IMG/VR virus record: IMGVR_UViG_3300019877_000084
Coordinates: 1 to 54,236 of that record
Source of the DNA: a virus
Lineage: Duplodnaviria > Caudoviricetes
Strand: one strand, 5' to 3'
Length of the DNA stretch: 54,236 nucleotides
Shown: piece by piece, positions 9,101-52,411 of the stretch
How the letters are laid out: each line of letters opens with the position of its first letter
Numbering within the stretch: the stretch's first letter is position 1
Position numbers and translations under genes: made by a program
Notes under the pieces: generated by a model
What the model was told of the DNA's origin: nothing
The model's database searches: none
Seen by the model: the letters and a program-made list of their open reading frames with translations, nothing else

Positions 9101-10998
9101 ATTTTAACTTTTGCCACGGCCAATTCCTTTCCGTCCCGCGTGAGGAACCGGTCACCCTCAACGCGAAATACTTCCTCCCCATCAGGTGTGGATTCAACTT
9201 GTTCTAGAACCTTAAAGCCTTTTATTTCTTTCGGAATAGGCTCTGGTGTTACGGCTGGTACTTGTTCTTTCTTCTCTTCCTTGACGGGAACGACTGGTGT
9301 TTCTTTTGTTTTACCAGCTTTTGGAACTTTGGATTGTTTTCGTTTTCCAGTTCCTTTGGGTTTAGTTTTTTCATTTTCTTTTTTGGGATACGCTAATAAT
9401 TGATCAGAAGTAAATTTATCCATCTGCTCCACACTGGTCAATTCCAACGGCGTTTCGCTTTGTTCATGGAAACCAAATATTCTTTCTCCATCGCCGAATC
9501 TGGCCTTGGCATCATCAGGGGAAGCTACCGGTTCTCCCCTCTTCTTTAAATCAGAAGGGATTACCGTTTTTTCTTCTTTTGATACCGGTACTTTTTTGAT
9601 GCTGGTTGGCTGTCCCCCTTGTGCATTGGTAGGTTCTTTGGTCCCTGGCCCGGATACTCGTGGGCCCATTTGCGCGCCACCTCCGGATGCTTCATCCAAA
9701 GGTACCGCCTCTGCTTTTCTGATTGGAAGGGCATGGTCTTGCTTTTTAAATGTTTGTGTTACTATATGGGCACCCTGACCACCAACACCACCTTGCGCTA
9801 AAGATTCAATTCTGTCCCGTGCGGCTTGATCGGTATTGGCTAGATCCCAGGTCTTTCCAAATTCATCTCCTGCTGCCTGTGAGGCCCCTATTTGTTCAAT
9901 CCATTGTTGCGCATATTCCGTGCTGGATTCAATCACGGCAGGAGACTTTACTATTTCTAAGGCGCGTGATTGTAGACTTTTCTTTATCGCTTGTTTTCCA
10001 AGACCACCGGTTGCGCCCTTAGCTCCTAAATAATCTAAGGCGCCGGCTACTGTACCGTATGCAAGTGCAAGCGCTGGTTTGTCAAGGTCTTGCTTAATAA
10101 CTTCATCAATCGATAATTTTTTGTCTTTGGCAATTTTTTGCACTGATTCCAAATAAATAGAACCAACCTCTTGTCCGATCGATGTCGCACCAAAACTGGC
10201 AATTGAAGCCGGTATCTGACCAGCGGCTTGGCCTCCGGCATAGGATATCCAATTCAGGATATCAATGGGATCATGAATCTTATCCAGTGAGCTGACAAGA
10301 TTGGTAGTGAGTTCAGAGCCTTCGCCTTGGCGTTGCTCCGCCCACTTCAATAAATCGCTCTTGATCTCCCGGTTTTTGTCTTCGGCGTATGCTAACTTGC
10401 CCTCGTCATAATTCTCCGGATTGGCTGCACTTGGGCGAGATGCTGCGGCAAGCCCTGCCGCAATTCCTGAAGGTAGTTGGTACGCAAGTGTGTTCCACGC
10501 TGACTTGCCGAACGTGACTACGGGATCGAACTCTGGTTCTTTACGATCTATTCCAAGATTCTCACGTAAGAGCCTTTCGTCTTTCTTGGCTTTGTAGTAA
10601 TCCAGACTTTGTTGCTCAGGCGAAACCTGTTTGAATAATTGAGCCCTGGCCTCGGCCTCATCTGCATTGGTCTTTTCGTTGAGAGCCGATAATTGGGTTC
10701 TGTTGGAGTCATTTGGATCTTCTACCGGTAAAGGCTTGCCTAAATCTACCGTGCCAGGAATTTGTAAAGAAGTTTCTTGCCCATTCTCGAAAGGAATGCC
10801 AGAAGCCGGTGAAGTATCTTCTTTTTTTTTTAATGGTTCGACTGTATCGGAATACGCTGGATATTTGGCTACGATCTTGTCAATGAGTTCGTCATCCGCT
10901 ATATCTTTGTATTGCGGATACTTAGATTTGATCTTGGCCGCAAACTCCTTGCGCGAAATCTTTGGTTTGGGATCGGCTATGATTTGGTCTTCGATCAT
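3181..10998 (-). CDS. giant polyvalent protein, probable virion ejection/cargo protein (DdrB-ParB-like, LPD23-like, two zincin HExxH motifs, C-terminal LPD38-like)
   Basis: 2605 aa; YAVIEAD..QPSH...GAPTV....VIQGNAR (ParB-like); EIWQKTGWF...DGKWRYE (LPD23-like); HELQH and HEFGH; AKNVTVNFNKKG...LFANAGIQG and PLVELSQNEKFY.QPIYP (LPD38 region); last gene of the structural operon. Confidence 0.8.
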   Translation of the reverse strand: MIEDQIIADPKPKISRKEFAAKIKSKYPQYKDIADDELIDKIVAKYPAYSDTVEPLKKKEDTSPASGIPFENGQETSLQIPGTVDLGKPLPVEDPNDSNRTQLSALNEKTNADEAEARAQLFKQVSPEQQSLDYYKAKKDERLLRENLGIDRKEPEFDPVVTFGKSAWNTLAYQLPSGIAAGLAAASRPSAANPENYDEGKLAYAEDKNREIKSDLLKWAEQRQGEGSELTTNLVSSLDKIHDPIDILNWISYAGGQAAGQIPASIASFGATSIGQEVGSIYLESVQKIAKDKKLSIDEVIKQDLDKPALALAYGTVAGALDYLGAKGATGGLGKQAIKKSLQSRALEIVKSPAVIESSTEYAQQWIEQIGASQAAGDEFGKTWDLANTDQAARDRIESLAQGGVGGQGAHIVTQTFKKQDHALPIRKAEAVPLDEASGGGAQMGPRVSGPGTKEPTNAQGGQPTSIKKVPVSKEEKTVIPSDLKKRGEPVASPDDAKARFGDGERIFGFHEQSETPLELTSVEQMDKFTSDQLLAYPKKENEKTKPKGTGKRKQSKVPKAGKTKETPVVPVKEEKKEQVPAVTPEPIPKEIKGFKVLEQVESTPDGEEVFRVEGDRFLTRDGKELAVAKVKIPTPITPKDIHTAAKKAGIDYESKEFMDKSKELTGKEHLDSMSPEELAKIKDYIETPAPKEDQTPEKARKEGKLIKDGVTYERQAPLEGDQVVKGGPVKLEFANKVNEEGEYAVIEADKIQPSHKKGIKNPLHFLPESQPKSRDQAFGQAGVKGAQDIAAKLDPTKVGESPNPYSGAPTVNSRGEVIQGNARADALQQYWANNQEKDPAGYKEYLVKNAEKFGLDPVKVAAMKNPVLTRMVKAGDARAIELGQYTASDIETGGKRRIEPVHTVNKLTPEDRTKLANTIAQSEGETLSEIIRANTDKILDILYKRGAITETQLETVHNPRTGEINKEGVEDLARVFRHMMFEGGDTNLAEIFEHLPDSVQKGIDKAIPAIIRTKGLNKTMNNALVGYREFQNSGMDDLNVWENQADIFNDGLSPKQIYSPEELNLIRLFDTKKQGEILGKIKEVAAYMADKEGDMFIGPSKGLKAKEAFQKVFVDKGLPENTDSTLPITTRLRNVGKDQFAVTGDTYSIKNRIVALGGIWDKKTQRYLFNNSARPEVEKLLESVEGKNPQAQFAGQRFDGRTVKQVETASKRIGQIQLKALVRRLMSKFPGISEVVTDRKRVQQAWQDFLNRGSGMFASFASPGNKITPEMASKLSQAEAMDRKGSKPFEIWQKTGWFKYKDGKWRYELDGSKAKIKIGDTHLIKAKKNTSESPDNEEWEINTENDLKLSEVIDYPEFFNLVPEAKDTKVRFFSGPEKGHPNAAYQHESNTIFINIDKYFTNNKNENERRTYLKGKVLHELQHQLQRTAGLSAGRGFDEILNRLAKETGRNPITDIQLRRQAFEEYRDQHEELESRKAEERSEFNAEERAKVPPFTKGELPEFFAQNPTGGIPNGFIYGDKIYLNPETVRLDTVIHEFGHLWWNIVRHKYPVLYAAGQRLIKGSKYKEEVDANPAYSSLSEAEKSDEAVVIAIGEKGAGIADKSAWRRFWTDLWSRLKQRLGIKQNVDMSTMTLNDLVLMAARELMTPGEIGRISNLHLPETASFRLKGFKMSSEAWEDWNKRVEADRILNLAPETWTRGVKSLRQIIMSSFLSTTQDWTRTMHEVQNEIVDSYIAKAQDEIDKLTASKETKKQFSKELKASRNMLTERLIGDTKDIHGLMDLMTGKAEYQIKSMRKWLFGETTSESGYGSIMEFLTKATTFKGNNVLDPNSFAGRVQAKGLTLLDLGFYMQVVHSLERNEYNRKLTKGETQAGSGMTDTEANVFLVEIKKSGKEDDLKTFAAEIREKLVVEPLNFQHQAGIINQKDYNQLLNYYANYVPLKVQQYQKGGQQGQLSKGIFGTGIKASHGSEQNKYWDRVNPIVHLINNYEATIAKVESNEVMKKFHKLVVQHPNEQVWKIIRPKKVVTEVVQEGQEEEGNDVGEIKTVVQDFTSPEEKRAIEKESVGVRIGGKQYFIWLKDPDLREVFVDKKPRPTKKWVISTMQVIRSIQNYQRATYIGLNLDFPLPNLVRDIQDAAVNLQSLEVKKIGRSVIGGIPTAMSTIFKKNIGKGKPDPMYSQYMDEMKAEGGEISWLDVAGHEEILKEVEQEIDRFKTLNPAQRLGNVMLYPTRKVMRGVVLINKVTEQAIRLSTYVNLREAGVSRHKAAKAAKNVTVNFNKKGSWGPFLNMAWLFANAGIQGANQMMTALIKSPKVRAMMVGLIIGQIANRFLLDALADDDDDLKKLLTESDHNKNFVLWAPWSKHQVVTVPVAYNIRPFKAVGDALYDLYRNNKDYGQAIGYVFKNFMNGIFPMAENNFYPSIVQPLVELSQNEKFYNQQPIYPEKKHLYQKDSELYFKSTDKPFIKLSGILSETFQGNDDVLEISPATMEYGMDYTLGGLKSWYKLGDQMYNVIDKQQIDYNKMPVVRRFVTDLSTQEWRTKVAFYKLYTELSRRRLSQEQFNFWKELGDRLTREGNIKPDDWNRKRKEILRVQQESFSNVLN

Positions 10999-18256: not shown

Positions 18257-18901
18257 TTAGGCGTGATTATCAAGTACCTGTTGCTCTTTAGAAAACTGTA
18301 TCATTTCACCTGATCTCATATTAATACCGAGCTTAGCCAGGGTTTTGTCGATGATGATGTCCGCTATGGTTTGATGCCATTCCCAATCCACACTACTGCC
18401 ATCGTTATAAATATACCTGTCTCCCACGGTATCGATAGCATATACCGGTAAATTAGGTTTCTTTAAAAACGACACAATCACTTTTGGAAATGCGTCTATG
18501 GGCATGACTTTTAGTTCTTGTTTATTATGGGTGCATACCGGGTATGTCGCTGTAGGAATCTTTACGGGATCATTTATCCTGGCATTCCACTTGGTGCTGT
18601 CGACATCATGTACTTCGGTTTTTACCGTCGAACTGACATAGCCTTCATACAAATATAGATAATCCAGGCTCACAATTGTGCCAACGCCATCTGTTAGTAT
18701 CACTTCCTCACTGGCTTGAAAAGGACGTAAATACGGATCCATACTCTTGGTCTTTTCGAAATCTTTAATGTATTGCCGCCACACATTCATGCTTTCGGCA
18801 TGAAGTTCGTCACATATTTGCTTAGGCGTGTGGTAGCCAGTAAGCCCTTTTTTAGTGGCAAAGTTTACCCGATTTACAACACTAAATATCAACTTAGACA
18901 T
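18257..18901 (-). CDS. putative tail ring/neck protein
   Basis: GYHTPKQI...FLKKPNLP.YA...YND.SSVDWEW...LGINMR resembles crAss-type ring proteins. Confidence 0.6.
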   Translation of the reverse strand: MSKLIFSVVNRVNFATKKGLTGYHTPKQICDELHAESMNVWRQYIKDFEKTKSMDPYLRPFQASEEVILTDGVGTIVSLDYLYLYEGYVSSTVKTEVHDVDSTKWNARINDPVKIPTATYPVCTHNKQELKVMPIDAFPKVIVSFLKKPNLPVYAIDTVGDRYIYNDGSSVDWEWHQTIADIIIDKTLAKLGINMRSGEMIQFSKEQQVLDNHA

Positions 18902-18906
18902 ATAGA

Positions 18907-19500
18907 TTAAAGTAAGGGTAAGAAGTTTACCTGCATAGACTCCAAAGTATTTCCTCCGAAAAAGTTAGTGCCCGGACAGCTTTTTGTAACCGGGTTAGGA
19001 TATTTTTCGGGATCGTCAACCCATCTCACGCCCGTAACTATATCGTAGAAATGATGATATACGATTGACTCCGTTGATGGTAAAAGTTGAAACTTCCGCA
19101 GTAAAGCAGTATTCATTTTAATAATGGTTTCACGGTGGACATCCGTCATGCCATCCCCACCTATATCAAAATTTCCCAAATGCTCAATGCAGATTCCGTA
19201 TTGATTCGCGCCCTTGATTCCCGCTGGTATGGTATCAAATGGTCGGCCCAGCGCTATGGCTCCATCTGGGAACGAAGTCAAATTTTGCGCTATTTGCGCA
19301 AATCCGTTTTGCATCTGAAACGCTTCCATGCTTTCCAGCCAATGAAAATGATCGGGTAACTTTTGCCAGTTTTCATAGTCTGGTTTCCATGTATGATGTT
19401 GTTGGACTAATCCGATTCTACGGGTAACATTTAACGTCGTTAACCACGTCTCGAAAGCCGGGAAATCAAATAGAGTGAATTTACCTTTTACTGTTTTCAT
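18907..19500 (-). CDS. endolysin, N-acetylmuramoyl-L-alanine amidase (Amidase_2)
   Basis: QQHHTW, GRP.....AGIKGAN..GICIEHLGNFD, IVYHH, KSCPG zinc-amidase motifs. Confidence 0.9.
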   Translation of the reverse strand: MKTVKGKFTLFDFPAFETWLTTLNVTRRIGLVQQHHTWKPDYENWQKLPDHFHWLESMEAFQMQNGFAQIAQNLTSFPDGAIALGRPFDTIPAGIKGANQYGICIEHLGNFDIGGDGMTDVHRETIIKMNTALLRKFQLLPSTESIVYHHFYDIVTGVRWVDDPEKYPNPVTKSCPGTNFFGGNTLESMQVNFLPLL

Positions 19501-19550
19501 TTTTTTAGGCGTTTGGATTTCATTAAATCTAGTAAAAAAAGTAACAATAC

Positions 19551-19919
19551 CTATTCACTTACCCTCAAAAAGTCCAGCACCTCGCTTACAATGCCCTGCA
19601 CACCAGCTTTCATTACATAACTATCTACCCCCGAGTTTCGAGCCAGTTCCAAGTCCTCGTCATCGGGTGGAAACTTAGACGAGTACAACAGGAATGGAAT
19701 ATGTCTCTTTTTTTCTCCGTGCCTAATAAGTTTCGCGAGTTCAAAACCACTTATCTTAGGCATATTAACATCCGATATGATCAATGAGAATTCAAAATCT
19801 CCCATCATCTTTAACGCTTGTTGGCCGTTTGACGCACTCATGGTCTTGAACCCCTTTTGCTTGAAGTTCTCCTCCAGAAGTTTGCGTTGCAGTTCATTAT
19901 CTTCTACGATTAACATCAT
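19551..19919 (-). CDS. single-domain response regulator receiver (CheY-like)
   Basis: LIVEDN acidic pocket, LIISDVNMPKISGFEL phospho-Asp, LLYSS, GVDSYVMK Lys. Confidence 0.9.
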   Translation of the reverse strand: MMLIVEDNELQRKLLEENFKQKGFKTMSASNGQQALKMMGDFEFSLIISDVNMPKISGFELAKLIRHGEKKRHIPFLLYSSKFPPDDEDLELARNSGVDSYVMKAGVQGIVSEVLDFLRVSE

Positions 19920-20154
19920 TTCCTGAGAATGCTTTTATCGCGTCTTGAATGTTATCCGCTATTGACTTTAGTTCTGTAATCTCGCTTTTGATAAAGTTGT
20001 CAAGCCTTTTTGTAACTGAATTCATGCTTGTAATTAATTTCTCTACGTCTTTTTGCATTCCAGATATTTTTATAATTGAAAAACTTACCCACGACAACCA
20101 TCCAGCAAAAGCCAGTAAAGCTATACCGAAAACGAAATCAGTTGACGCCGGCAT
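19897..20154 (-). CDS. small membrane-anchored coiled-coil protein (holin/spanin-like)
   Basis: one N-terminal TM helix then heptad repeats; in the lysis region. Confidence 0.55.
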   Translation of the reverse strand: MPASTDFVFGIALLAFAGWLSWVSFSIIKISGMQKDVEKLITSMNSVTKRLDNFIKSEITELKSIADNIQDAIKAFSGNDVNRRR

Positions 20155-20157
20155 CCT

Positions 20158-20673
20158 TTATGGTACTTTAGGCGAATCAACAGTTGTTTTTGTTTCCGTT
20201 GTAACCGTTGTTGCTTCCTGTTGTTTTACTGGCGGCACGGATGACAGGCCTCCCTTAAACGCCAATGCCCAATCGAAAATGTATCGTCCAAATACCTGGT
20301 AGGCAATTAACCCGGTAATGATATATAGCGCAATTACTTGCGTGTTTGAGCTATTCGTAAAAAAGGCAACACGGCCAATTATTGGTGGAAAAATAAGTAT
20401 TGAATAAAATGTCACTTGTTCCCCTCCCTCCCATGCTTCGTTTTTACCTGTCATTCTCAGGCCTGCGATCATTTCTTTTTTGTAGTAAAGAAACAAAGCC
20501 CAAAAGAACAAAGTCACCCCACCCCACATTAAAAGACTGTCAATCCGCTCAGGGTTTTTTGCCAGGTGAAAGAAGTAACTTTCAAACACATTGAACTTTC
20601 CATGGGTGATATTTTGTACCCTTGCCATGGTGTTATGAATTATTGAATCCGGCAATGTTTGAAATAAGGTCAT
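20158..20673 (-). CDS. 3-TM membrane protein, putative holin
   Basis: three hydrophobic segments; upstream of the endolysin. Confidence 0.5.
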   Translation of the reverse strand: MTLFQTLPDSIIHNTMARVQNITHGKFNVFESYFFHLAKNPERIDSLLMWGGVTLFFWALFLYYKKEMIAGLRMTGKNEAWEGGEQVTFYSILIFPPIIGRVAFFTNSSNTQVIALYIITGLIAYQVFGRYIFDWALAFKGGLSSVPPVKQQEATTVTTETKTTVDSPKVP

Positions 20674-20691: not shown

Positions 20692-22131
20692 TTAAGGTAT
20701 AAAAAGTGGTGCCCTGTATCCGTACCCCTCTATATACCAAGTATCCGTTGTAGTGATCAAACCTTGTAAAAGATAATTATCAGGATCGTTATACCCGATA
20801 ACAAATGTCGGAGTGGGGCAAGTACCGATGACGTTGCCATGATTCCCAACCTGGCCCGTGATCGTATTAGTATAACCTATTGCTCTGTTGTCAAGATACA
20901 TTGTCGTAGAGCCATCGAGCGTATTGTTTCTGAAAACGATTGGCGCCATCCTTTCTTCAACCTTCACGGCATAGCTATCGGATCCTCCAAGTTTCTTGAA
21001 GCAGTTGTTTTCCACTATGATCGAATCTCCGGTGAGCCGATTGGCGAATGCCGCAAAGTATTGGTTATCGGTGCGAAGGATCTGCCCGGGAAATGCCGTC
21101 CAGCTTATGTAGTTATGATGAAGGCGTAAACCATGCGAGGCAATGGAGAATCCGTCCTTTGCCCCGGAAAAAACATTATACCTGACCTGGCTTCCCGGCC
21201 CGTTGTCGTGATACTGAAAATTATTACTTTGGCCACTGGTAGTAGTCTGCCCGGCGAGGATACTGGTATTATATTCAACGGTGACAAAGTTTGCATGTTC
21301 TATTTGGATGAACTCCCGTTGGAGGTTGTACCCAAAACAATTACTGACTACCGATACGTTTATGTAGTTGGTTCCGTTGTAACTCGCCCCGGTGTTGCCC
21401 TCATAAATACATTCTTGGCCAGTGTTGAAACATCTGAGATTTTTTACCGTAATATTTTTGTAATAGTTGGTCCCCGATATTCCAAAGTTTGCGGTAAAAC
21501 CGGACGCATTAGGATTTTTGGCTACGGCATCCTGAACTAAAATAGTTGACCCACCACTGGCCGATGGCATTTGAAATCCGTTTTCGCCGGTGACAACAAG
21601 GGGATATGTGGCAAGGCCGTAAAATGAAAGATCATAAGCCCCGGCCCCGTTGGTGCTTATGCCGTGATTCTGCCCCACTCCTTGCGTGCCGTAAACCGCC
21701 CCAGCCGTAGTAACGAATCTGTAGTCCCCACTTGCTTGTCTGATGGAGAATCCATTTACAAAGGCCCCATTTGGTTTATAGTCTCCAGGAGATCGTCCCG
21801 AGGCGAAGTCAAATAATCCTGGCGAGGTGCAACAAAAATTACTTGGTGCAATCGCTGTCCCTGCTGTGAATGGAGGTAACGGAATGTCAGAGTATTTCTT
21901 TACGGGCAATGGAGGAACAGCCCTTAACAACGAATCAAACGAAGCCTTAAGTTTTAGGATGGAAGCCTCCAAAGCGTTTACTCTTTTTTCATTCACAAAA
22001 AACAGGCTATCTGTCGTCGCCCTTAATGCAAAAATTTTAGCAATACTAATCGTTCCGGTAGAACTGTACGGGATAGACTGAGCCGAAGCAGTGGAGTAAA
22101 CGAAAGCGAGGATGAATAAAAGTTTTTTCAT
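20692..22131 (-). CDS. secreted right-handed beta-helix (pectin-lyase-like) protein
   Basis: signal peptide MKKLLFILAFVYSTASA|Q; short coiled coil; Asn-ladder repeats (VEYNT, VRYNVF, LHHNYI, IVENNCF, VFRNNTL). Confidence 0.75.
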   Translation of the reverse strand: MKKLLFILAFVYSTASAQSIPYSSTGTISIAKIFALRATTDSLFFVNEKRVNALEASILKLKASFDSLLRAVPPLPVKKYSDIPLPPFTAGTAIAPSNFCCTSPGLFDFASGRSPGDYKPNGAFVNGFSIRQASGDYRFVTTAGAVYGTQGVGQNHGISTNGAGAYDLSFYGLATYPLVVTGENGFQMPSASGGSTILVQDAVAKNPNASGFTANFGISGTNYYKNITVKNLRCFNTGQECIYEGNTGASYNGTNYINVSVVSNCFGYNLQREFIQIEHANFVTVEYNTSILAGQTTTSGQSNNFQYHDNGPGSQVRYNVFSGAKDGFSIASHGLRLHHNYISWTAFPGQILRTDNQYFAAFANRLTGDSIIVENNCFKKLGGSDSYAVKVEERMAPIVFRNNTLDGSTTMYLDNRAIGYTNTITGQVGNHGNVIGTCPTPTFVIGYNDPDNYLLQGLITTTDTWYIEGYGYRAPLFIP

Positions 22132-22439
22132 TTTTTACAAGCAATTTCTTTCAACTGATCAAAGGTCAAATGTACTTTTACTTTTCCCGGGTATACAATC
22201 GTAACCTCATTCCATTCTTTTGCCTTGGATTTAAGTTCGCTGTGCCTTTTTTTCAACGCGCTCCAATCCAGTTTGGCAAAATCTTCACACCTTGGAAATG
22301 GATGGTCCTTATCCACTATAATGTACATACCTGCAAACGGGATACGTTCGGTAGATTGCTGTACTATGGAAGCAGGTCGTACAACCTGCCCCATAGACCC
22401 AAAAGAAACCAACGCCAACAAGAATATTAATGTTTTCAT
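22128..22439 (-). CDS. secreted hypothetical protein
   Basis: start at ATG 22439 (ATGA overlap); signal peptide MKTLIFLLALVSFGSMG|Q. Confidence 0.65.
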   Translation of the reverse strand: MKTLIFLLALVSFGSMGQVVRPASIVQQSTERIPFAGMYIIVDKDHPFPRCEDFAKLDWSALKKRHSELKSKAKEWNEVTIVYPGKVKVHLTFDQLKEIACKK

Positions 22440-22915
22440 AGGCTTAAAGTTATCAATTGAAACACACCCATCACAATAAATGTAAAATCTGCGATCTCTA
22501 CCCACCACGTGGAGTTTTCTACTTTAAACCGGTCCAACAATATGGAGCCAACCAGGCAGCAAATAGTAGGAAAATAAATTCCGTGTGTAAGTAACGCGTA
22601 ACACGCAAACGCAATCCCGCCTATTGTTCCCGCGGAATGAAGTATGCCCACTATTTTCTTATCGCTCCGGAAGGCCGGTGCAAAGGTAACAATAAGCAAC
22701 GATCCGCCAGAAGCGAGGAACCAGAGGCTTTTTGAAAATAAGAGCATTGTTGGAATGCTAATTGAAATGATAAATGCGATGAACATAAATTTTTTCTTTG
22801 TTAGCCCTTCACTATACCATGACTCGCTGATTGACGGCAAGATGCCGTACAAAGAAACCACAATCCATAGATAGGTAAGGAAACAAATGGCTTGAATGAT
22901 TGGTAGCGTTATCAT
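22436..22915 (-). CDS. multi-pass membrane protein
   Basis: 5-6 hydrophobic helices; LPSISESWY motif. Confidence 0.7.
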   Translation of the reverse strand: MITLPIIQAICFLTYLWIVVSLYGILPSISESWYSEGLTKKKFMFIAFIISISIPTMLLFSKSLWFLASGGSLLIVTFAPAFRSDKKIVGILHSAGTIGGIAFACYALLTHGIYFPTICCLVGSILLDRFKVENSTWWVEIADFTFIVMGVFQLITLSL

Positions 22916-23025
22916 ATTTTATAAGTTACATTTTCAAAATCAACAAGGGCCGCCTTACTTCCCTTGTCGTATTAAGCTCTAACCATTCGAAGTTAACTAT
23001 AAGAACGTCAGGCAATGTTTTCAAA

Positions 23026-23412
23026 TCACTTAATCCGTTCAATTTTTAGCGTCCCCTTACTCAAATCTCCCCCTGAAATCCGATATTTCTTAGGATCAAT
23101 TCCTTGCGCATCCAAAATCAATTCCTGTGCCTGTCTAGACTGTTCTTGGATAGCTGCCGACCGCTGCATTAATGTATTGAAGGTAGCAATCACTTCCTTG
23201 TTTTTCTCCACGTCTGATGCAAATGCTTTTTGAACCGAATCTAGTTTCGTCAAGATTTGCTTTTGATAGGTACGCAATTCAATAGTTAGCGTATCCTTGG
23301 GCGAAGACTTGGCTTGAAGGGTCGGTTTCCCTGCCTTAGCCACAACGCCAGTCTGGGCGATGGACACGATGGAGAACAAAATAAAGGTTAGAGTCAAAAG
23401 TTTAGTTTTCAT
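23026..23412 (-). CDS. secreted coiled-coil protein
   Basis: signal peptide MKTKLLTLTFILFSIVSIA|Q followed by a long helix. Confidence 0.7.
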   Translation of the reverse strand: MKTKLLTLTFILFSIVSIAQTGVVAKAGKPTLQAKSSPKDTLTIELRTYQKQILTKLDSVQKAFASDVEKNKEVIATFNTLMQRSAAIQEQSRQAQELILDAQGIDPKKYRISGGDLSKGTLKIERIK

Positions 23413-23415
23413 GGG

Positions 23416-23940
23416 TTACCAGTTTTTATTTGTGTTAAGTTTATTTATGAGCGCGGCCACGATTAAATACACTTCATCCAGGGCACCTTGTGTGCTGAGT
23501 GTACCGGTTCCAGCGATTTGGTTCAACTTGAACTGTTGCCAATAAGCTAACTCGGTGATAGCTCCGGGGGTGCCGCTTGCAACTATGTTACCGTTCACAT
23601 CTACCCAGTGTCCGGCTGTACCATAACGAATATACTTATCGCCATAAGTTTGTAACAGAACGTCTTTTTGAGCCTGTGTCAAAACGCCATCAGCGGCTAT
23701 GGTCGTCATAATGTAATTCCCATAAGCCCCGGCAACACTCTCGTAGGATTGTATCTGAACTTCGAGTTGCCATTCTTTAGTATTGAAAATTATGAAGCTG
23801 GTTACTACGGCCTTTTGTTTCACCGGATTACCATTGAACTGCAATCTTAGGTTATCACTAAGATTGACGACAGCCCAGGTATTGTTGGCTACTTGTGCTG
23901 AAGCGCAAAAACTGATTAGAAGAAAGATTATTGTTTTCAT
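23416..23940 (-). CDS. secreted hypothetical protein
   Basis: signal peptide MKTIIFLLISFCASA|Q. Confidence 0.7.
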   Translation of the reverse strand: MKTIIFLLISFCASAQVANNTWAVVNLSDNLRLQFNGNPVKQKAVVTSFIIFNTKEWQLEVQIQSYESVAGAYGNYIMTTIAADGVLTQAQKDVLLQTYGDKYIRYGTAGHWVDVNGNIVASGTPGAITELAYWQQFKLNQIAGTGTLSTQGALDEVYLIVAALINKLNTNKNW

Positions 23941-23969
23941 CTTTTTAAGATTATGTTGAGTTAAGAATT

Positions 23970-26900
23970 TTACATTGCTGTTGTTCTTGATTGCTCATTC
24001 CAGTTGGTCCCATCATACACAAAATTCACCGTGAACACTTTTGCGGTTACCGTTCCCGTGGAGAGTGTACCAATCGTCTTATAGTTTGTTCCCCAGGTTA
24101 GTACAAATGCGGTCGTTCCTGAAGTAGTTACCACGAATGAGCATTGTTGTCCTGCAATTCCACCAGAGGCATTGAATGTACACGCACCAGTTGGGGTGAT
24201 GGTCATCACGGTGAGGTTAGTTAGCGTAGTAGTCATCGTTCCGGTTGTAGCTGGAGCAGCCACACTTGCATTAATACCTATGGCTAGCCGTGTGGCAACT
24301 GGAGTGAAAAATAGATTTGTACCATTGTTTTCAACCGCTCCAGCTAGTGGAGTGGTTAGGTTTGTTCCAGATGGGAGAAGCAGTGGAGCATACGTAGTTG
24401 TACCAGCAGCTAGTAACCAAGACCCACCAATTACCTGGCCTGCATAGTTATTTGTTGCTCCTGTAGCAGCATTTACTGTAATTCCATAGCTATTGGTAAC
24501 AGCACCAGTGCCAGCAATTACACTTCTTGATCCAATATATAGTGCGTGTGAATTTGTAATAGTGGCATTATTACCAGCTTGAGAATAACTAATATACATG
24601 AACTCAGCATCTGTAATAGTGCTAGCTCCAACAAACTCATACCGTGGTGGTTGAAACAGAATACTTCTTAATAGTGTTTGTGCTCCAGTATTAAATTGTA
24701 CAATTCTATTAAGAGCAAAATTAACATCATTAGACTCTACACTTGCTGTTAAGGTTACGTGTGGAGCACCACTTAAAATGAGCGCTGTAGGCGTTCCGCT
24801 TGATAATGTACCTTGCGTAATTTGTAATTGCACAGCCGTTGTGCCACTAGAAATTTTAACTGCGCCAAGTAAGTTTGCAGAGTAATTATTTGTTGCGCCC
24901 GTCATCGCGTTAGCAGTAATACCATAACTATTGGTACCACTTCCTACAGATGCAGATTGAATTAAAATACCGTGAGAATCAGTTATGATTGCATTAGTAC
25001 TAGTAACGGGTGCACCTAAAACGTTTATGGATGCGGCAGAGGTAATTGTTCCTCCAGCAGTAACAAAGGCATATTGCGTTGGTCGTATATCAAGACCAAA
25101 TGCAGTAGAAACGGTGGTGTTGGAGGCAAATTGAACAGTTTGTGCTAAATTAAATTGAACTGCAGCATAACTAGTACCAGCAGCTAATGTGGTATGAGCC
25201 GCTCCTATAAAGCTAGCAAGAAGTGGGGTGCCTCCATTATGGGCACTTTGAGTGAAAGAAATAAAAGTATGAGTAGTTGATTGAGCCACTTGACTAAACG
25301 TGACCCCAATGCCCCCTAAAAATTGTGCAGAGTAGTTAAGCGTTCCCCCTGTAGGCGCATTAGACGTCAATCCAAATGCCGCTCCTGCACTCGTTACCGC
25401 TCCGGCTTGAATAAGTAGCCCATGAGCGTTGGTCTGAGTTGTGTTGGTTCCGGCCTTGGGCGCACCGCTGATGGTGAACGTTGCGTTATCTGTGATCACA
25501 GAAGCTCCAGTGAATCTAATAGTGGGTGCTTGAACAAGTGCGTTACGGAGAATGGTCTGCGCTCCGGCAGCGTATTGGACGGTAGCGGAAGAATTGAAGT
25601 TGGCAAAAAGTACTTCGGTGGAAGCCGTAAGACTCGTATGGGCACCGCCATCTACCTGGAAAGCGGGAAGACCATTAGCAGAAATTAAGGCTGGTTGTAG
25701 GACATATAATCGTGCGAGATTATTTCCTGTAGCTACCCCGATATTAAAATTTTGTAGAGAGGTAAATGAACCAGCAATTGTAGATCCATTAGTCCGTAAA
25801 TTAATTCCTCCTGCTGCGAGAGGAGCGTCAAAATAAACATCCTGTCCAGCAACCTGCATACTCATTCCCATCACACCACTTGATGAGTTGATCGCAATAT
25901 TCCCAAGTACTTGTAGAAAATTACTTGCTCCTGATGAAGCCCCGGTGGCAATTAATAATTGCCCCGTAGATGTAAAATTGGCAATTTGTGTATAAGCTGC
26001 CCCATTAATACTCGATCTTAATCTCCATAACCCCGTTGGGTTTGCTGCCCCTTGTACTGGAAGAACATCGGCCATGAACTTAACTGATTGATTAGCTACT
26101 GGCGTAGTTGCCCATCCTTGCCCTTCCCATAGTACCCCACCTGATATTTGTTGCGCTCCTGCCGCTGCGGCCGTAGCATTTTGAATCCATAATCCCTTTC
26201 CGTCAACCGAGGTTACTCCCAATGTTGGAGTAAGAAATTTCAATGTATTGGCTCCCGTTGTGGTTTGATCAATTACGACCGCTCCAGTAAGCGTGGAGGT
26301 TCCGGTAAGTAGCCAACTTAATCCCGCGGTTTGTACCGTAAGCCAATTTGTTCCATTATAAAACTTCAAAACATGAGAAGTAGTATTATAAGATAATTCT
26401 GCTTCCAATCCTACAGAAGGGTCCGAAGCAAAACCACCAAGATTAATAGGGGATGTTGTAGTAGTCTGAATAAAAGTTTGCTTATCAGTAAATGTCTTAA
26501 CTCCAAGAACCGATCCCCAACTAGGCAATGATAAAGTAGTATATGCACTAGAAACATCAACACTATATTTTAATCCCCCAGCACTCCCAAGTCTTACATT
26601 ATAATCAATAGGGATATTACTATCCTGATAACGAAGCATTACTCCATTTATATCAGAAGTTACTGTCATGTATTTACCAACTAAATTCCCGAAAGCCATT
26701 ACTATAGAGTTTTGATCGGCATCTACCGTATTGTTCAATGCCCCACTCTGCCAACCAAACCTAGCAAGCTCAAATGCTGTTGTAGTTGAAGTTACTATCT
26801 TTATTGAATTATTCTGAAATAGATTTACACCTAATCCACTCAATGTTAAATTTGAAGTAAGAGTATTGCTACCCTGCTTTATAAAAGTGGATTGAGCAAC

Positions 26901-28523
26901 TTTAGTTAGTATTTTACTTGTAGAATTCCAAGTGATAATGTCATCAGTACTCCCCGCAGAAGGTGTGGTAAATATTGCTAACGATGGAACTGCCACCACG
27001 TCGATATAGGTTGTACCAGTAAGATTGATGCCACTCCCACCAATAATGGCGGCTCTCACATTGCCTGACGCTATGTTGTGGTTTAGCCCTCCTAAGATCA
27101 CACAATTGTTAGCCAGGGCACCATTACCGGCAGTCTGTGAAGCATTGTTTTCAGACCAGATAAAAGCTCTATTGCCTGAAGCAATAATACTTTTGTTAAA
27201 GCTGGAGCCACCTCCGCCAAGAGAATTCCCCTGACCACCAGCAAACGCTACGTTTCCAATGTTACTAATTGCGAAACCTAAACTAAATGATAATGTACCT
27301 CCAGAATAGACACTGCTGCCAAAAGCAAATGAATTTTGACCAACAGCAATGTTATTACCTCCAAAGGCCACACTATAATTGTTTGCAATGTTGTGTGAGC
27401 CAAACGCTAACCCATATTTATCACTAAAAGTTTGAACAATGTACCAGTCATAAGTCCCACTCACACCGGGAAACGTTGTACTAGCAGTAGCTACATATCC
27501 GCCATTGACATTGTTCGTAGCCGTTATTGTGCTATAGGTGTACCACAAATTAAAAGCTATGTGTGTGTCGTCTGTAAAGACATGAGCAGCACCTCGATAC
27601 CAGTTTCCACCGCTATCTTTCACCCAAAAGTCTGTCCAAAAACTCTCCCCAAAAAATGTGGCATTATTAAAATCTGTCCCAATCCCAGTTATCGAAGCTG
27701 ACCCATTAGTCATGACCACCTGGCCGTTGCCCTTTATGCCAGGTGACCTGGCTGATAAGTTGCTATAATCAATTAACGGAATGCGTCGGTAGTTTGCTAC
27801 TCCGGTGGACAAGAAGCTGACATAATTAATATCATTAATTGAATTTGTTATGGCATCGCTAGTGGCAACAGGTAGATTAAATGCCGTTCCTGTACTAAAT
27901 AACTTATTTGTCAATGTCTGCGCTCCGCTATCCGCATATTCCTTATCCACCAACGAGTGAGTCTGCGTTACATACCCTGTAGCTGCGTATTCCAATCCTT
28001 TTAATGATGTACGAGTATCAGTGAATAGTGCAGAGGTTCCGGTCAAGTCTATACTTGTATGTGGTGATCCACCGCCTATTCCACCGGTAAGATGTACACC
28101 GGTAGCATCAAGAAGTACCTCTGCTATTACACTGCTAGCCTGTATATGGGTAAGATCGAGAGAGTTAATATTTAGAAGTGCCTTAGAAAATTGTGTGTAG
28201 CCCGAGTTGCCGGCTACGACATCGAAGATTCCGAGCGGCACCGTAGTGTCTCCCCAGCGAACATTAAAGGCACCGTCAAAGGTTAGGTTTTGAGTAAGGA
28301 TGTTGGTGCCTTGAGTTAAGGCATTGCTTTGTCCCAATATATTCCAACCCCCATTTTGCCTGAATCTGAATTTATTAAGTACGCGATCGTAATAAATTGT
28401 CCCATTATTTGATCCCGACAAAACAGAGTCTCCATTAATCAGGCGTATATCAGTGAAGTTACCGTGTTGAGCGGAGGCCACAATAGAAATAAACAGACCG
28501 AGTAAAAGAAATATTTTTTTCAT
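23970..28523 (-). CDS. large fibre/adhesin-like protein with signal peptide
   Basis: MKKIFLLLGLFISIVASA|Q; GTIYYDRVLNKFRFRQNGGW and YNTTSHVLKFYNGTNW fibre motifs; YadA-head-like repeats (SVAFGGNNIAVGQNSFAFG); three ~145-aa repeats; T/G/A-rich. Confidence 0.75.
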   Translation of the reverse strand: MKKIFLLLGLFISIVASAQHGNFTDIRLINGDSVLSGSNNGTIYYDRVLNKFRFRQNGGWNILGQSNALTQGTNILTQNLTFDGAFNVRWGDTTVPLGIFDVVAGNSGYTQFSKALLNINSLDLTHIQASSVIAEVLLDATGVHLTGGIGGGSPHTSIDLTGTSALFTDTRTSLKGLEYAATGYVTQTHSLVDKEYADSGAQTLTNKLFSTGTAFNLPVATSDAITNSINDINYVSFLSTGVANYRRIPLIDYSNLSARSPGIKGNGQVVMTNGSASITGIGTDFNNATFFGESFWTDFWVKDSGGNWYRGAAHVFTDDTHIAFNLWYTYSTITATNNVNGGYVATASTTFPGVSGTYDWYIVQTFSDKYGLAFGSHNIANNYSVAFGGNNIAVGQNSFAFGSSVYSGGTLSFSLGFAISNIGNVAFAGGQGNSLGGGGSSFNKSIIASGNRAFIWSENNASQTAGNGALANNCVILGGLNHNIASGNVRAAIIGGSGINLTGTTYIDVVAVPSLAIFTTPSAGSTDDIITWNSTSKILTKVAQSTFIKQGSNTLTSNLTLSGLGVNLFQNNSIKIVTSTTTAFELARFGWQSGALNNTVDADQNSIVMAFGNLVGKYMTVTSDINGVMLRYQDSNIPIDYNVRLGSAGGLKYSVDVSSAYTTLSLPSWGSVLGVKTFTDKQTFIQTTTTSPINLGGFASDPSVGLEAELSYNTTSHVLKFYNGTNWLTVQTAGLSWLLTGTSTLTGAVVIDQTTTGANTLKFLTPTLGVTSVDGKGLWIQNATAAAAGAQQISGGVLWEGQGWATTPVANQSVKFMADVLPVQGAANPTGLWRLRSSINGAAYTQIANFTSTGQLLIATGASSGASNFLQVLGNIAINSSSGVMGMSMQVAGQDVYFDAPLAAGGINLRTNGSTIAGSFTSLQNFNIGVATGNNLARLYVLQPALISANGLPAFQVDGGAHTSLTASTEVLFANFNSSATVQYAAGAQTILRNALVQAPTIRFTGASVITDNATFTISGAPKAGTNTTQTNAHGLLIQAGAVTSAGAAFGLTSNAPTGGTLNYSAQFLGGIGVTFSQVAQSTTHTFISFTQSAHNGGTPLLASFIGAAHTTLAAGTSYAAVQFNLAQTVQFASNTTVSTAFGLDIRPTQYAFVTAGGTITSAASINVLGAPVTSTNAIITDSHGILIQSASVGSGTNSYGITANAMTGATNNYSANLLGAVKISSGTTAVQLQITQGTLSSGTPTALILSGAPHVTLTASVESNDVNFALNRIVQFNTGAQTLLRSILFQPPRYEFVGASTITDAEFMYISYSQAGNNATITNSHALYIGSRSVIAGTGAVTNSYGITVNAATGATNNYAGQVIGGSWLLAAGTTTYAPLLLPSGTNLTTPLAGAVENNGTNLFFTPVATRLAIGINASVAAPATTGTMTTTLTNLTVMTITPTGACTFNASGGIAGQQCSFVVTTSGTTAFVLTWGTNYKTIGTLSTGTVTAKVFTVNFVYDGTNWNEQSRTTAM
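24440..25680 (-). repeat. three ~145-aa tandem protein repeats in the fibre protein
   Basis: GGAHTSLTASTE / GAAHTTLAAGTS / GAPHVTLTASVE, ending TGGTLNYSA / TGATNNYSA / TGATNNYAG; boundaries approximate. Confidence 0.8.
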
Positions 28524-28530
28524 AAATATT

Positions 28531-30150
28531 TTAAGTATAAGGTCCACCAAGGCAAGTCATAAGCCACTCTGTTCCATCATAACTTAGGCTAAATTCATAG
28601 GTTCCGGTGTCCAATGGGGTCCAGGTGTGTGCTACAGTATCCCATCTTGCATCACTCATTTTAAAATTTGATGGAAATGTCTGTATATCCAATGTGGTCA
28701 TCGTAAACTTTAATGATGGAATCAAAAGTGCTAACCCCACATTTGTTATACTCCATGTTTTAGCTGATCCAATATTTGATGAGCCCACAAACATGACCTC
28801 TTCAAGACTATTCATGTCAATAACAATGGGGGCCGTAGTGGTTACAACTGAAAGTCTTATAAGTGAACTGCCGCCTCCACCGCCAGGAGCGCCTTGAATA
28901 GAAACAGACCAACTTCCATAGGTTCCAGATCCAAAAATTGTATCAATAGAAACAGTAAGTTGTCCTGTGGATTGATTATATGAATCAACCACACCTTCCA
29001 TTCTTTTTGTCGGGTCACCAGGAACCGATATAACAGTAGCCTGGCCCGTGGAATAAGCCAGGTCTTTCTCCACAATTAAGGTTTGTGTTCCTATCGCAAT
29101 AGTTAATGATGTAGAACTACTCGTCGTCCATTGATCACCGGTACCACGATATTTTGCCCATAACCCAACGAAGTCACCCACAACCGGAGACACAATTACC
29201 ACGGTGCTCTCAAGGAACGCCACCCACTGTTTTGATGAATCAAATGTGGTTGTAAATCCTGTTCCTGAGGCGTCGTCTGCGTAGGCGGTGTATAGATAGG
29301 CATTAGCTCCATCAGTGCCAGCCGCGCCATCAGCACCATCGGCACCAGACGCTCCGGTATCGCCTATATTGCCCTTGATTGAATATCCACTACCCCAAGA
29401 CCCAGCGGTTTTGGGTCCATACATTAGGCGGGGATCGCTGGAAAGATCTATGTAAAAGTCGCCGTTGACGCCAAGCCCGGAACTAGGTACGCCGGCACCG
29501 CTTAATATGCTGTATCCATTGATTCCGGCTGCACCTGTCGCACCAGTGGCGCCGGCTGCACCAGTGGCCCCGATGGTGCCAGTGGCCCCGGTGGTGCCTG
29601 TAGCTCCTGCTGGTCCGGTGTCGCCTACGTATTTACGCCACAGTCCAGCAAATATCCCCACCACGACCGTAAGTGGTGATGTGCTTTGCCGGACAGCTAG
29701 GTAAGTATGAGATCCTGGAGTGGTGCTGAATCCTGTCCCGGTGTTGTCATCGGCATAGCCAACATATACATAGGCGTTGATTCCGTTTTCACCAGCGGGA
29801 CCCTGGCCTCCGGCATTGATTACGTTTGGCACACCGCGAAACAGAAGTTTAGGCGATACCGGAACTGTTTTTAAATCCGCGACCTTGATCAGGTCCCTTA
29901 ACAGTTTATTGAATTGTTCGTCTGTGATCCGCCCATTATTGCCGATAAAGTTTCCACTTTCATTATATTCGGTATAGCGTTTGAGGTTTCTAAAACGCTT
30001 TACCGCGCGAATGAGTTGTACTTTTGTGGTTTTCTGCTTTATTGAATTAGTGTATCCATTCGTATCGTTTCTGGAAACGTCAAGGCCAAGCTCTGCTATC
30101 CTGTTATACACAGAGGCTATTTTGAATCCACTATTGGCAAAAAGTGACAT
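28531..30150 (-). CDS. collagen-like tail fibre protein
   Basis: GXY runs (GDTGPAGATGTTGATG), two AYxYxxYADDxxGTGF repeats, GVPSSGLGVNGDFYID motif; no signal peptide. Confidence 0.8.
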   Translation of the reverse strand: MSLFANSGFKIASVYNRIAELGLDVSRNDTNGYTNSIKQKTTKVQLIRAVKRFRNLKRYTEYNESGNFIGNNGRITDEQFNKLLRDLIKVADLKTVPVSPKLLFRGVPNVINAGGQGPAGENGINAYVYVGYADDNTGTGFSTTPGSHTYLAVRQSTSPLTVVVGIFAGLWRKYVGDTGPAGATGTTGATGTIGATGAAGATGATGAAGINGYSILSGAGVPSSGLGVNGDFYIDLSSDPRLMYGPKTAGSWGSGYSIKGNIGDTGASGADGADGAAGTDGANAYLYTAYADDASGTGFTTTFDSSKQWVAFLESTVVIVSPVVGDFVGLWAKYRGTGDQWTTSSSTSLTIAIGTQTLIVEKDLAYSTGQATVISVPGDPTKRMEGVVDSYNQSTGQLTVSIDTIFGSGTYGSWSVSIQGAPGGGGGSSLIRLSVVTTTAPIVIDMNSLEEVMFVGSSNIGSAKTWSITNVGLALLIPSLKFTMTTLDIQTFPSNFKMSDARWDTVAHTWTPLDTGTYEFSLSYDGTEWLMTCLGGPYT

Positions 30151-35296: not shown

Positions 35297-35938
35297 CTAT
35301 ACCAATGATACCCCTCCGTCAATCACCAGGTTGGTACCGGTGACGTAATCGTTGTTCAGAAGGAACTTTATTGCGTCGGCAAGTTCCTCTACTTCTCCGA
35401 TCCTTCCAACCGGAATAATGTTTGGTAGCGATTCTTTCATACCTACTGGTAGGCGATCAGTCATTCCTCCATTCATAAATCCGCATTGCACACTGTTAAT
35501 CAAAATACCATGCTTAGCATTTTCTATGGCTGCTACCTTTGTAATCGCGTCTACAAACGATTTTGAAGCACAATAAATTCCAGCGCCCCTCTCTGGTCTT
35601 ATTGAAAGAAATGAACTCATCATCACAATCTTACCAGGTTTTTTCTGTTCACGAAAATACTTTACGTATTCCCTGATGACATTCACGGCTCCGAAGCAAT
35701 TAATATTGATCATCCGGCAAATATGAATGTCAGATGCCTTGTGAATTACATCGTCATAATTCCATCCAGCGCAATTAACAACGTAGTCCACGCCTGAGCG
35801 CACAATGTTGGAATACCCAGTGACATCACAATCTTTTGATGACATAGAAAGCACGGTATAGTCACGGTTAAATATTTCCGTGAGTTGGCTGCCAAGCCCA
35901 CCACTACCCCCGAGTAAAATTATTGTGCGTTTTTCCAT
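35297..35938 (-). CDS. short-chain dehydrogenase/reductase (FabG-like SDR)
   Basis: GGSGGLG, VNCAG, SS, YCASK, YVTGTNLVIDGG. Confidence 0.9.
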   Translation of the reverse strand: MEKRTIILLGGSGGLGSQLTEIFNRDYTVLSMSSKDCDVTGYSNIVRSGVDYVVNCAGWNYDDVIHKASDIHICRMININCFGAVNVIREYVKYFREQKKPGKIVMMSSFLSIRPERGAGIYCASKSFVDAITKVAAIENAKHGILINSVQCGFMNGGMTDRLPVGMKESLPNIIPVGRIGEVEELADAIKFLLNNDYVTGTNLVIDGGVSLV

Positions 35939-36471
35939 TTATCCTTGATTTTAATGATTGGTCTTTGTCTGGTGGCTTTGAACGCTAGCGGTATTCCCCA
36001 CCATACTGACCAAGGTGTTAAATGCTGCTTTGTCATCACTAAACTTTTAGCACCTATGCAGCATCCCTCAGGAAATGTTACACCCGGAAAACACATGACA
36101 TCACTTGCTATGCCAGAGTATTCTTTGAATTCAATATCTCCTTTTTCTGCTTCATTCTCAAACCAAAAATCACCAACGGCTCCCCTCCCGGAATAATCCT
36201 CTGAGGCGCAGAATAGTTTACTACCATATCCTATGAACGCTCCTTTTCCTAAAGTTATTTTATGGCTCGGTCCCCCCGATAAAACAGCGCCAGCACATAT
36301 CTGATTGTATCCATGTAACTCAAGTTGTGTTGTCACAAGGCAGTATGGATCAATACGGCAGAAATCATGCAGAACTACCTCTGATGGATTGGTGAAAATG
36401 CAGTATTGGCCAATAAAAACGTTTTGACCTACGTGCTTAAATTGCTTCTTGATTGACTCGTCCCAAGCCAT
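35920..36471 (-). CDS. hexapeptide-repeat (LbH) sugar O-acyltransferase
   Basis: start MAWDES at 36471; FKHVGQNVFIG...SEDYSG...PGVTFPEGCCIGAKSLV...PWSVWWGIP. Confidence 0.85.
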   Translation of the reverse strand: MAWDESIKKQFKHVGQNVFIGQYCIFTNPSEVVLHDFCRIDPYCLVTTQLELHGYNQICAGAVLSGGPSHKITLGKGAFIGYGSKLFCASEDYSGRGAVGDFWFENEAEKGDIEFKEYSGIASDVMCFPGVTFPEGCCIGAKSLVMTKQHLTPWSVWWGIPLAFKATRQRPIIKIKDKWKNAQ

Positions 36472-36473
36472 GA

Positions 36474-52334: not shown

Positions 52335-52405
52335 CGCAGGGTAGATTAATGGTAGATCATTGGGCCCATAACCCAACCGTGAGGGTTCAACTCCCTTCCC
52401 TGCTA
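52335..52405 (+). tRNA. initiator tRNA-fMet (CAT)
   Basis: cloverleaf: acceptor CGCAGGG/CCCTGCT with C1:U72 mismatch, A11:U24, anticodon stem TTGGG/CCCAA (3 G-C), loop CC-CAT-AA, T-loop TTCAACT; no encoded CCA; TAACTTTA promoter-like element at 52324. Confidence 0.85.
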
Positions 52406-52411
52406 CTAAAT

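Follow-up and report, generated by a model that had tools for sequence, protein, structure and literature searches.

The lysis cassette of a tailed phage encodes a stand-alone receiver (REC) whose gene is coupled to that of a small membrane protein. The DNA is the IMG/VR virus record IMGVR_UViG_3300019877_000084 (Duplodnaviria; Caudoviricetes), a linear viral record of 54,236 nucleotides (nt) that CheckV estimates to be about 54% complete; this whole stretch is called the window below. The partner of REC is a bitopic protein of 85 amino acids (aa) with one transmembrane (TM) helix and a coiled coil (TM-CC). The TM-CC and REC genes are translationally coupled; their neighbours are genes for holin-like membrane proteins, the endolysin gene follows immediately, and the whole group is in a late structural-gene operon. 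As judged by sequence comparison, they have also been inherited together across about 50% sequence divergence. We propose that the two proteins may form a membrane-tethered, host-phosphorylated regulator of holin triggering, and we put the probability of this reading at roughly 40%. The cassette consists of the following genes, in the order of transcription:

20158-20673, minus strand: 171-aa membrane protein with three TM segments, holin candidate (open reading frame, ORF)
19897-20154, minus strand: 85-aa TM-CC protein, bitopic (ORF)
19551-19919, minus strand: 122-aa stand-alone receiver, REC (PF00072)
18907-19500, minus strand: 197-aa Amidase_2 (N-acetylmuramoyl-L-alanine amidase) endolysin (PF01510)

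A first-pass annotation of the window had reported this order, namely a three-TM protein, a TM-coiled-coil protein, a receiver overlapping it by 23 nt, and an amidase. The coordinates are exactly as given there, all on the minus strand. The overlap of the TM-CC and REC genes spans 19897-19919, and the ATG-ATG start of REC lies within the last TM-CC codons. The 171-aa gene is separated from the 85-aa gene by 3 nt, and REC from the amidase gene by an A/T-rich spacer of 50 nt. Virion structural and tail genes, identified by PHROG matches, flank the cassette on the same strand. The placement of a receiver in a lysis cassette, also proposed in the first-pass annotation, is backed by conserved synteny in a relative and in Alteromonas phages, as described below.

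REC matched PF00072 with an E value of 2.5e-18 (66.7 bits, cut-off 30.2), and the domain was also recovered on the DNA. When a profile of the REC clade was compared with the PDB, the best match was CheY3 of V. cholerae (E 1.7e-20), which aligned from end to end. With residues counted on the ORF translation, E6 and D7 of REC fall on the acidic pair of CheY3, D50 on the phospho-Asp, S80 on the Thr/Ser, and K104 on the Lys. The acidic pocket, phospho-Asp, Ser and Lys that REC had been said to keep are thus on the expected positions. In addition, Y101 aligns with the aromatic switch position of CheY3, and the D-x-N-M-P loop matches that of CheY. The AlphaFold2 (AF2) model of REC has a complete (beta-alpha)5 fold at a predicted local distance difference test score (pLDDT) of 91.8, with its strands and helices in the order E-H-E-H-E-H-E-H-(E)-H. 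Among the top matches listed by Foldseek, the template-modelling scores (TM-scores) were 0.76-0.86 for the 3gt7 receiver, RR468, CheY4, DivK and CheY, which are stand-alone or excised receivers. The final helix of the model spans residues 106-121 of 122, and the relatives are 120-123 aa long, in agreement with the earlier statement that there is no output domain. On all sequence and fold criteria that were tested, REC belongs to the receiver family and is a single-domain response regulator.

A protein search recovered nine further stand-alone receivers of 120-123 aa with 48-64% identity to REC, and an outlier with 38%; clade members P0002-P0008 stem from Logan/ENA. The residues E6/D7, D50 and S80 are invariant in all 10 clade members, and helix 1 is strongly conserved (L10, Q11, K13, L14 and L15). 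Genome and metagenome scans, which were dominated by generic receivers, gave cellular receivers with at most 40% identity. Among longer proteins only generic receivers were found, at most 43% identical to REC and mostly belonging to hybrid kinases. Since the cellular homologues are no closer than about 40-43%, the REC clade is, on its sequences, a phage clade and not a recent host capture. The domains HATPase_c, HisKA and Hpt were absent from all three viral records searched (the window, the relative with a 98% identical receiver, and the complete genome of a second relative, which has direct terminal repeats), so that the window indeed lacks a kinase, as had been noted earlier. Because no kinase or Hpt protein is encoded in these three records, REC is not half of a two-component pair.

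The N-terminus of the TM-CC protein is short and acidic; it is followed by a single TM helix, in which a GWxxW motif occurs, and by a long amphipathic helix. In Pfam, PHROGs and NCBIfam the 85-aa protein had no match. AF2 models residues 3-83 as one continuous helix (pLDDT 86.7), in which a heptad pattern can be seen by eye. Exhaustive HMMER searches yielded a family of 66 representatives at E<=1e-3, including 17 at E<=1e-10, and nearly all are 70-110 aa long. The family shares the C-terminal motif RLDxF(I/L)K(S/T)EIxELKxI and, in an alignment of 30 members, the motif GW..W(V/I)S in the TM helix. When this alignment was inspected by eye, D or E preceded the TM helix in 28 of the 30 members and K or R in only 1, and K or R followed it within about 8 residues in all 30. 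Owing to this charge distribution and the positive-inside rule, TM-CC is predicted to insert N-out/C-in, which would leave the long helix in the cytoplasm, the same compartment as the receiver. Fusions of TM-CC with a receiver were absent among the 66 family matches; the two long ones, of 428 and 512 aa, are coiled coils with multiple repeats. The family was not detected in any of 401 sampled Bacteroidota genomes (positive control, 3 of 3 viral records), and tblastn of four TM-CC proteins against GenBank phages gave no match.

The queries for scans of IMG/VR were REC, the 479-aa protein encoded next to the cassette on its upstream side, and three TM-CC sub-alignments or proteins. These scans reached only two relatives of the window and the lineage of a distant TM-CC protein, P0080. 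In the closer relative (L002/L003), the receiver is 98% identical to that of the window and the same four genes are present; the amidase is 95% identical in L003. The second relative (L004/G001) is a genome of 45,668 bp with direct terminal repeats, which is rated 100% complete. Its receiver has 122 aa and is 49% identical to REC. The gene order in this genome is as follows:

Order 1: 439-aa homologue of the 479-aa secreted protein of the window, 45% identical
Order 2-3: 112-aa TM protein, then 96-aa TM protein
Order 4: 80-aa TM-CC homologue, 48% identical
Order 5: receiver, overlapping the TM-CC homologue by 8 nt
Order 6-7: 50-aa ORF with one TM segment; 58-aa ORF with two TM segments, its stop overlapping the start codon of the Peptidase_M15_3 gene
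Order 7-8: Peptidase_M15_3 endolysin, non-orthologous to the amidase, then 133-aa multi-TM protein

The 171-aa protein of the window had no detectable similarity to the two small TM proteins in the same slot of L004. Thus, between these genomes the TM-CC and receiver pair was kept while the endolysin family (M15 versus Amidase_2) and the small TM proteins were swapped. A third lineage with the pair is likely, on circumstantial grounds; the longest contig is 34,297 nt both for the REC-clade member P0006 and for the TM-CC protein P0023.

A comparable arrangement was found in Alteromonas phages. Three Alteromonas records had been listed by tblastn, and the set considered here consists of four cultured phages, H4/4, R8W, R9Y2 and PB15, in three lineages:

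H4/4 and R8W (T7-like, Autographiviridae): tail fibre, class II holin (DUF7940), 98-aa protein, 153-aa receiver, two-TM protein, small terminase
R9Y2 (named vB_AmaS): gp13 (N-terminal TM helix and a further helix), receiver gp12, GH108 and PG_binding_3 lysin, with overlaps of 4 nt each
PB15: 101-aa coiled-coil protein with a C-terminal TM helix, receiver, Peptidase_M15_3, GTA_holin_3TM

The 98-aa protein of H4/4 and R8W has an acidic N-terminus, a TM helix and a long helix, and the receiver gene overlaps its gene by 4 nt. The position of the receiver in these two phages is that of the T7-type holin locus. In PB15, where the partner is tail-anchored, the coiled coil would likewise be cytoplasmic. 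H4/4 gp43 aligned with the TM-CC family profile over 62 columns (88% probability, E 3.2e-6), which is suggestive of a relationship, bearing in mind that a composition of TM helix and coiled coil can inflate such scores. The Alteromonas receivers resemble REC in that they are stand-alone proteins encoded directly after a single-TM helical protein, with a start/stop overlap or a gap of at most 17 nt, inside the lysis region. They differ from it in sequence (27% identity over 86 residues) and in their hosts, which are Gammaproteobacteria. In H4/4, R8W and R9Y2 the receiver domain is also extended by a helical tail of about 35 aa and contains the canonical K-P, unlike in the window.

A single-TM helical gene is located directly upstream of the receiver gene in all five lineages examined (the window with L003; L004; H4/4 with R8W; R9Y2; PB15). 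An endolysin gene follows the receiver gene directly in four of them, and three endolysin families are represented, with Amidase_2 in one lineage, M15_3 in two and GH108 in one. In the remaining lineage the receiver is at the holin locus. Random placement of REC homologues among relatives, which the first-pass annotation had named as an outcome that would speak against a role in lysis, was not seen, and the pair recurs in the lysis regions of the relative and of the Alteromonas phages. The arrangement of a TM helix with a receiver is a real and recurrent design.

The existing annotation of the Alteromonas genes points elsewhere. The products gp44 of L177 (NC_047834.1) and gp48 of L178 (MW043865.1) are annotated as "putative DNA-binding response regulator", and they consist of a receiver and a helical tail of about 35 aa. 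In the paper on R8W (PMC8228385), g48 was read as PhoB, an auxiliary gene for phosphate stress, and not as a lysis gene. The Alteromonas receivers, including H4/4 gp44, contain PF00072 only, and no DNA-binding domain was detected in them. The labels "PhoB" and "DNA-binding response regulator" were rejected on this domain content.

In the mechanism that we propose, TM-CC would be inserted in the membrane with its C-terminal helix inward and would tether the receiver at the cytoplasmic membrane face. Coupling of lysis timing to host phosphorylation had also been suggested in the first-pass annotation. The receiver would dock either on the TM-CC helix or on whichever portions of the adjacent holin candidates face the cytoplasm. 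A host histidine kinase, a phosphorelay or acetyl phosphate would determine the state of the receiver by phosphorylating D50, and this state would advance or delay holin triggering and hence the release of the cytoplasmic amidase. The module of TM-CC and REC would then be a switchable cytoplasmic factor, either antiholin-like or a co-holin. A broader version of this proposal, which we regard as possible but doubtful, is that unrelated tailed phages (Bacteroidota podophages, T7-like Alteromonas phages and others) share an unrecognised class of lysis regulators. In this class, a coiled-coil partner with one TM helix would hold a CheY-type receiver at the inner membrane, and the receiver, once phosphorylated through host kinases or acetyl phosphate, would gate the holin. 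If this is true, the lysis clock answers to the envelope or energy state of the host, as a phospho-relay analogue of T4 lysis inhibition.

Several observations weigh against regulation of the holin by a phosphorylated, membrane-tethered receiver. The 171-aa protein matched nothing in Pfam, PHROGs or NCBIfam, and its best Atlas score, 0.82, is at chance level. Because no family matches, its label as holin-like comes solely from architecture and position, so that it is a holin candidate only. The lineages were reached through similarity to REC and the availability of DNA, which is a selection bias; 2 of the 63 records from the first REC searches and 2 more of 72 from another were inspected. The remainder are mostly unannotated records, many of them probably bacterial contigs, together with R9Y1/3, XX1924 and the Pseudomonas phages Y1 and Y11.

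The TM-CC family also extends beyond the REC clade. One distant member, P0080 (L174), is encoded among small TM genes between the portal gene and genes resembling head-morphogenesis genes. This phage (89.7 kb, 91% complete) is without any receiver, and no recognisable lysin is located within 4 kb of P0080. Therefore, TM-CC does not need REC and is not always found beside a lysin. Furthermore, only 1 of 30 TM-CC representatives compared in this respect has a longest contig of the same size as that of a REC-clade member. Because of the receiver-less L174 and this low co-occurrence, the receiver is best described, at the level of sequence, as an accessory partner of TM-CC in a subset of lineages.

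The active site itself is not uniform. The conserved Lys of REC, a residue that is near-universal in receivers and normally touches the phosphoryl group, is K in 5 of the 10 clade members, Q in 4 (P0004, P0006, P0007 and P0008) and R in 1 (P0009), and the Pro that normally follows it is missing in all 10, where the start of helix 5 has the family motif (K/Q/R)(A/S)G-x-x-G-I. The idea of a uniformly classical phospho-switch is therefore weakened. For the same reason, a phosphorylation-independent adaptor is a serious rival: the receiver fold would be a structural subunit of a lysis complex, binding TM-CC or the holin constitutively in the manner of a pseudo-receiver. The synteny fits such an adaptor as well as it fits phosphorylation-dependent holin control, and the complete relative encodes no kinase or Hpt protein. 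However, the acidic pocket is conserved in full throughout the clade, which is difficult to account for unless metal or phosphoryl chemistry is involved. The D-x-N-M-P loop is CheY-like, and the Alteromonas receivers keep the canonical K-P. We consider the adaptor rather unlikely on balance. The receiver could also act as a decoy or phosphate sink that drains or blocks a host two-component pathway for envelope stress or phosphate, its proximity to the lysis genes reflecting late co-expression only; a phosphate sink dampening envelope-stress signalling was the other function suggested in the first-pass annotation. A stand-alone receiver with an intact pocket and without a phage kinase would suit this role. 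The strongly conserved helix 1 is the usual kinase-docking helix, among longer proteins the closest relatives are hybrid kinases, which match in their receiver domains, and the Alteromonas counterpart has been published as a PhoB-like auxiliary gene. Nevertheless, a takeover factor would be expected among the early genes. REC, being encoded in the late structural operon, is more readily reconciled with an event at the membrane late in infection than with a sink for envelope-stress signals that acts early. A soluble sink also leaves unexplained both the coupling to a membrane helix in all five lineages and the four different lysin or holin contexts, and the PhoB label fails on the domain content of H4/4 gp44. 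We regard the sink as unlikely.

A different explanation starts from the 85-aa protein, which could be an Rz-like inner-membrane spanin or a one-TM holin of the BhlA type, with the receiver as a passenger (moron) of unrelated function. Weak PHROG matches were obtained for members of the 30-protein alignment, of which 6 matched phrog_739 ("Rz-like spanin", best E 2.7e-5), 3 matched phrog_1152 and 2 matched phrog_214. The named Atlas clusters nearest to the TM-CC family carry Holin_BhlA, with scores of 0.82-0.84 that are leads only, and the occurrence of TM-CC without a receiver would be expected if the receiver were a passenger. The features of TM-CC are not those of an Rz-like spanin, however. 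The charge distribution seen by eye predicts an N-out/C-in orientation, opposite to that of Rz, and 70-110 aa is short for a subunit that spans the periplasm. The gene that overlaps TM-CC downstream encodes the receiver, and no embedded or overlapping gene for a lipoprotein-type partner is present. None of the 30 members matched a Pfam holin or spanin family at E<=1, and no Pfam family is shared. A passenger gene would not remain coupled across lineages in which the lysins have been swapped, and this explanation appears improbable. Equally improbable, in our estimate, is another late membrane function of the pair, such as superinfection exclusion, sensing of secondary adsorption, or counter-defence. 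The combination of a membrane location with a signalling domain, and the position of the L174 helix protein among small TM genes away from a recognised lysin, are consistent with such a function. No positive evidence was found for it, and the recurrent site upstream of three endolysin families and beside Pfam-recognised holins points to lysis instead.

Among known systems, the closest in protein type are the single-domain response regulators CheY, DivK, Spo0F, CpdR and RR468 of T. maritima. Like REC, they have about 120 aa, a complete (beta-alpha)5 fold, the same active-site residues with the aromatic switch, and no output domain. Single-domain response regulators act by protein contact. REC differs from them in its genetic setting: its gene belongs to a lysis cassette of a lytic-type phage that has no cognate kinase, and its translation is coupled to that of a helical protein with one TM segment. 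It also differs in the replacement of the Pro after the Lys and the variability of this Lys in the clade, and it is at most 40-43% identical to the cellular receivers found.

The closest systems in terms of function are the antiholins. In phage T4, the antiholin RI and the cytoplasmic co-antiholin RIII act on the holin T, and S107 of lambda and LydB of P1 are antiholins as well. These are small proteins which are encoded with the lysis genes, bind the holin and shift the time of triggering, and RIII is cytoplasmic, as the receiver must be. In contrast to what is proposed for REC, none of these factors is known to be a phospho-receiver or to read a two-component system, and no relation in sequence or fold is expected. 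Response regulators are known to govern cassettes of the holin/endolysin type in another way. The LytSR two-component system controls the holin-like cid/lrg genes, and its response regulator decides whether and when they act. A similar decision is made by the PhoB-like RoeA, which is reported to control the lysis cassette of Yersinia entomophaga (PMC10101115). Both of these regulators bind DNA and act transcriptionally on cellular cassettes, whereas REC has no DNA-binding domain and is likely to act by protein contact at the membrane. A receiver acting inside a phage lysis cassette is therefore different from the known antiholins and from transcriptional two-component control.

In phage N4, gp62 is a lysis regulator and gp63 a pinholin (PMC12642591). 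This podophage cassette resembles that of the window in having a one-TM holin with a cytoplasmic segment proposed to take a regulatory signal and a small membrane regulator (PMC12642591). The "Receiver domain" of N4 gp63 was considered as a precedent and rejected; in the same source, this is the name of a cluster of mutations and not a CheY-like receiver. Two other candidates were rejected as well. The divergent cREC of jumbo phages is linked to NAD/ADP-ribose systems (PMC7824862), which is a different context, and the phage spo0A homologues are without a receiver (PMC10294663).

A full-text literature search, the coverage of which does not extend to subscription journals, found no paper proposing a receiver as a component of a lysis cassette. 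Among the life-history traits of a lytic phage, the timing of lysis is the principal one. To our knowledge, the known regulators of lysis timing are the antiholins and T4 RI/RIII, of which none is known to respond to two-component signals of the host. If the proposed role of TM-CC and REC is correct, a receiver wired into lysis cassettes with exchanged lysin and holin parts is a direct molecular link from host physiology to the decision to burst. Cultured carriers exist in the Alteromonas phages H4/4, R8W, R9Y2 and PB15, so that the idea can be tested immediately. It would also put right the current practice of annotating such genes as "PhoB" or "DNA-binding response regulator" and of counting them among auxiliary metabolic genes.

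With respect to the other cassette proteins, the 171-aa holin candidate has, by eye, an N-terminal region of 44 aa, hydrophobic segments at about 45-65, 87-105 and 112-133, and a hydrophilic tail rich in Thr and Lys. The amidase matched PF01510 with an E value of 3.8e-8 (34.2 bits, cut-off 26) and had weak matches to endolysin/amidase families of PHROGs; no sequence match was found in the PDB at E<=0.01. Neither a signal peptide nor a TM segment is visible in it. The His pairs 35-36 and 149-150 and the motif K173-x-C175-P, recognised by eye, provide H35/H36, H149/H150 and C175 as candidate zinc ligands of an amidase of the T7-lysozyme/PGRP type, putatively equivalent to residues of T7 lysozyme.

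The region downstream of the endolysin (L003 2015-3242, L004 7338-8455, window 18257-18906) differs between the window and its relatives. In both relatives a multi-TM protein follows the endolysin, with 148 aa in L003 and 133 aa in L004, and the two proteins are 35% identical (E 4e-18). Beyond this gene in L003, two overlapping genes on the other strand encode a 132-aa coiled-coil protein with an N-terminal TM helix and a 136-aa protein with a signal peptide and a hydrophobic C-terminus; the pair looks spanin-like. The window is without the multi-TM gene, and its amidase gene directly adjoins virion structural genes. Since the lysis genes are 95-99% identical and the multi-TM gene is nevertheless missing, a recombination breakpoint is located just after the amidase gene.

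Directly upstream of the cassette (20692-28550, minus strand) is a run of genes for proteins with N-terminal signal peptides of the Bacteroidota style, ending in ...(S/A)AQ. Secreted proteins inside a block of virion and tail genes are unusual. None of the proteins of this run, including a multi-TM protein within it, had a family match; for the 479-aa protein, Pfam, PHROGs and NCBIfam were searched. The genes are as follows:

20692-22131, minus strand: 479-aa signal-peptide protein, conserved next to the cassette (45% identity to its L004 counterpart) and not necessarily a member of the lysis module
22128-22508, minus strand: signal-peptide protein, of 126 aa if translation starts at the internal Met
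22436-22915, minus strand: 159-aa multi-TM protein
23026-23412, minus strand: 128-aa protein with a signal peptide and a coiled coil, which could be a spanin-like component
23416-23940, minus strand: 174-aa signal-peptide protein
23970-28550, minus strand: 1526-aa signal-peptide protein

Nearly all genes of the window are on the minus strand. PHROG matches identified portal, large terminase, primase/helicase, single-stranded DNA-binding, tail-fibre and virion structural proteins. The host of the phage is most likely a member of the Bacteroidota, because the terminase resembles those of Flavobacterium, Cellulophaga, Maribacter and Tenacibaculum phages, to which it is 26-28% identical. A protein of 2605 aa is encoded at 3181-10998 on the minus strand, and in its last 700 residues it matches phrog_14770 (E 3.3e-79) as well as further PHROGs of giant proteins of unknown function. 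It may be an ejected or virion-borne giant protein as in crAss-like and N4-like podophages. Morons or auxiliary genes are present in the middle of the phage, at 35297-38353 on the minus strand; one has a reductase domain resembling FabG (phrog_3142, E 1.2e-30), and a protein of 557 aa combines glycosyltransferase and methyltransferase parts. A single tRNA-Met (CAT) is located at 52335-52406 on the plus strand, opposite to nearly all protein genes.

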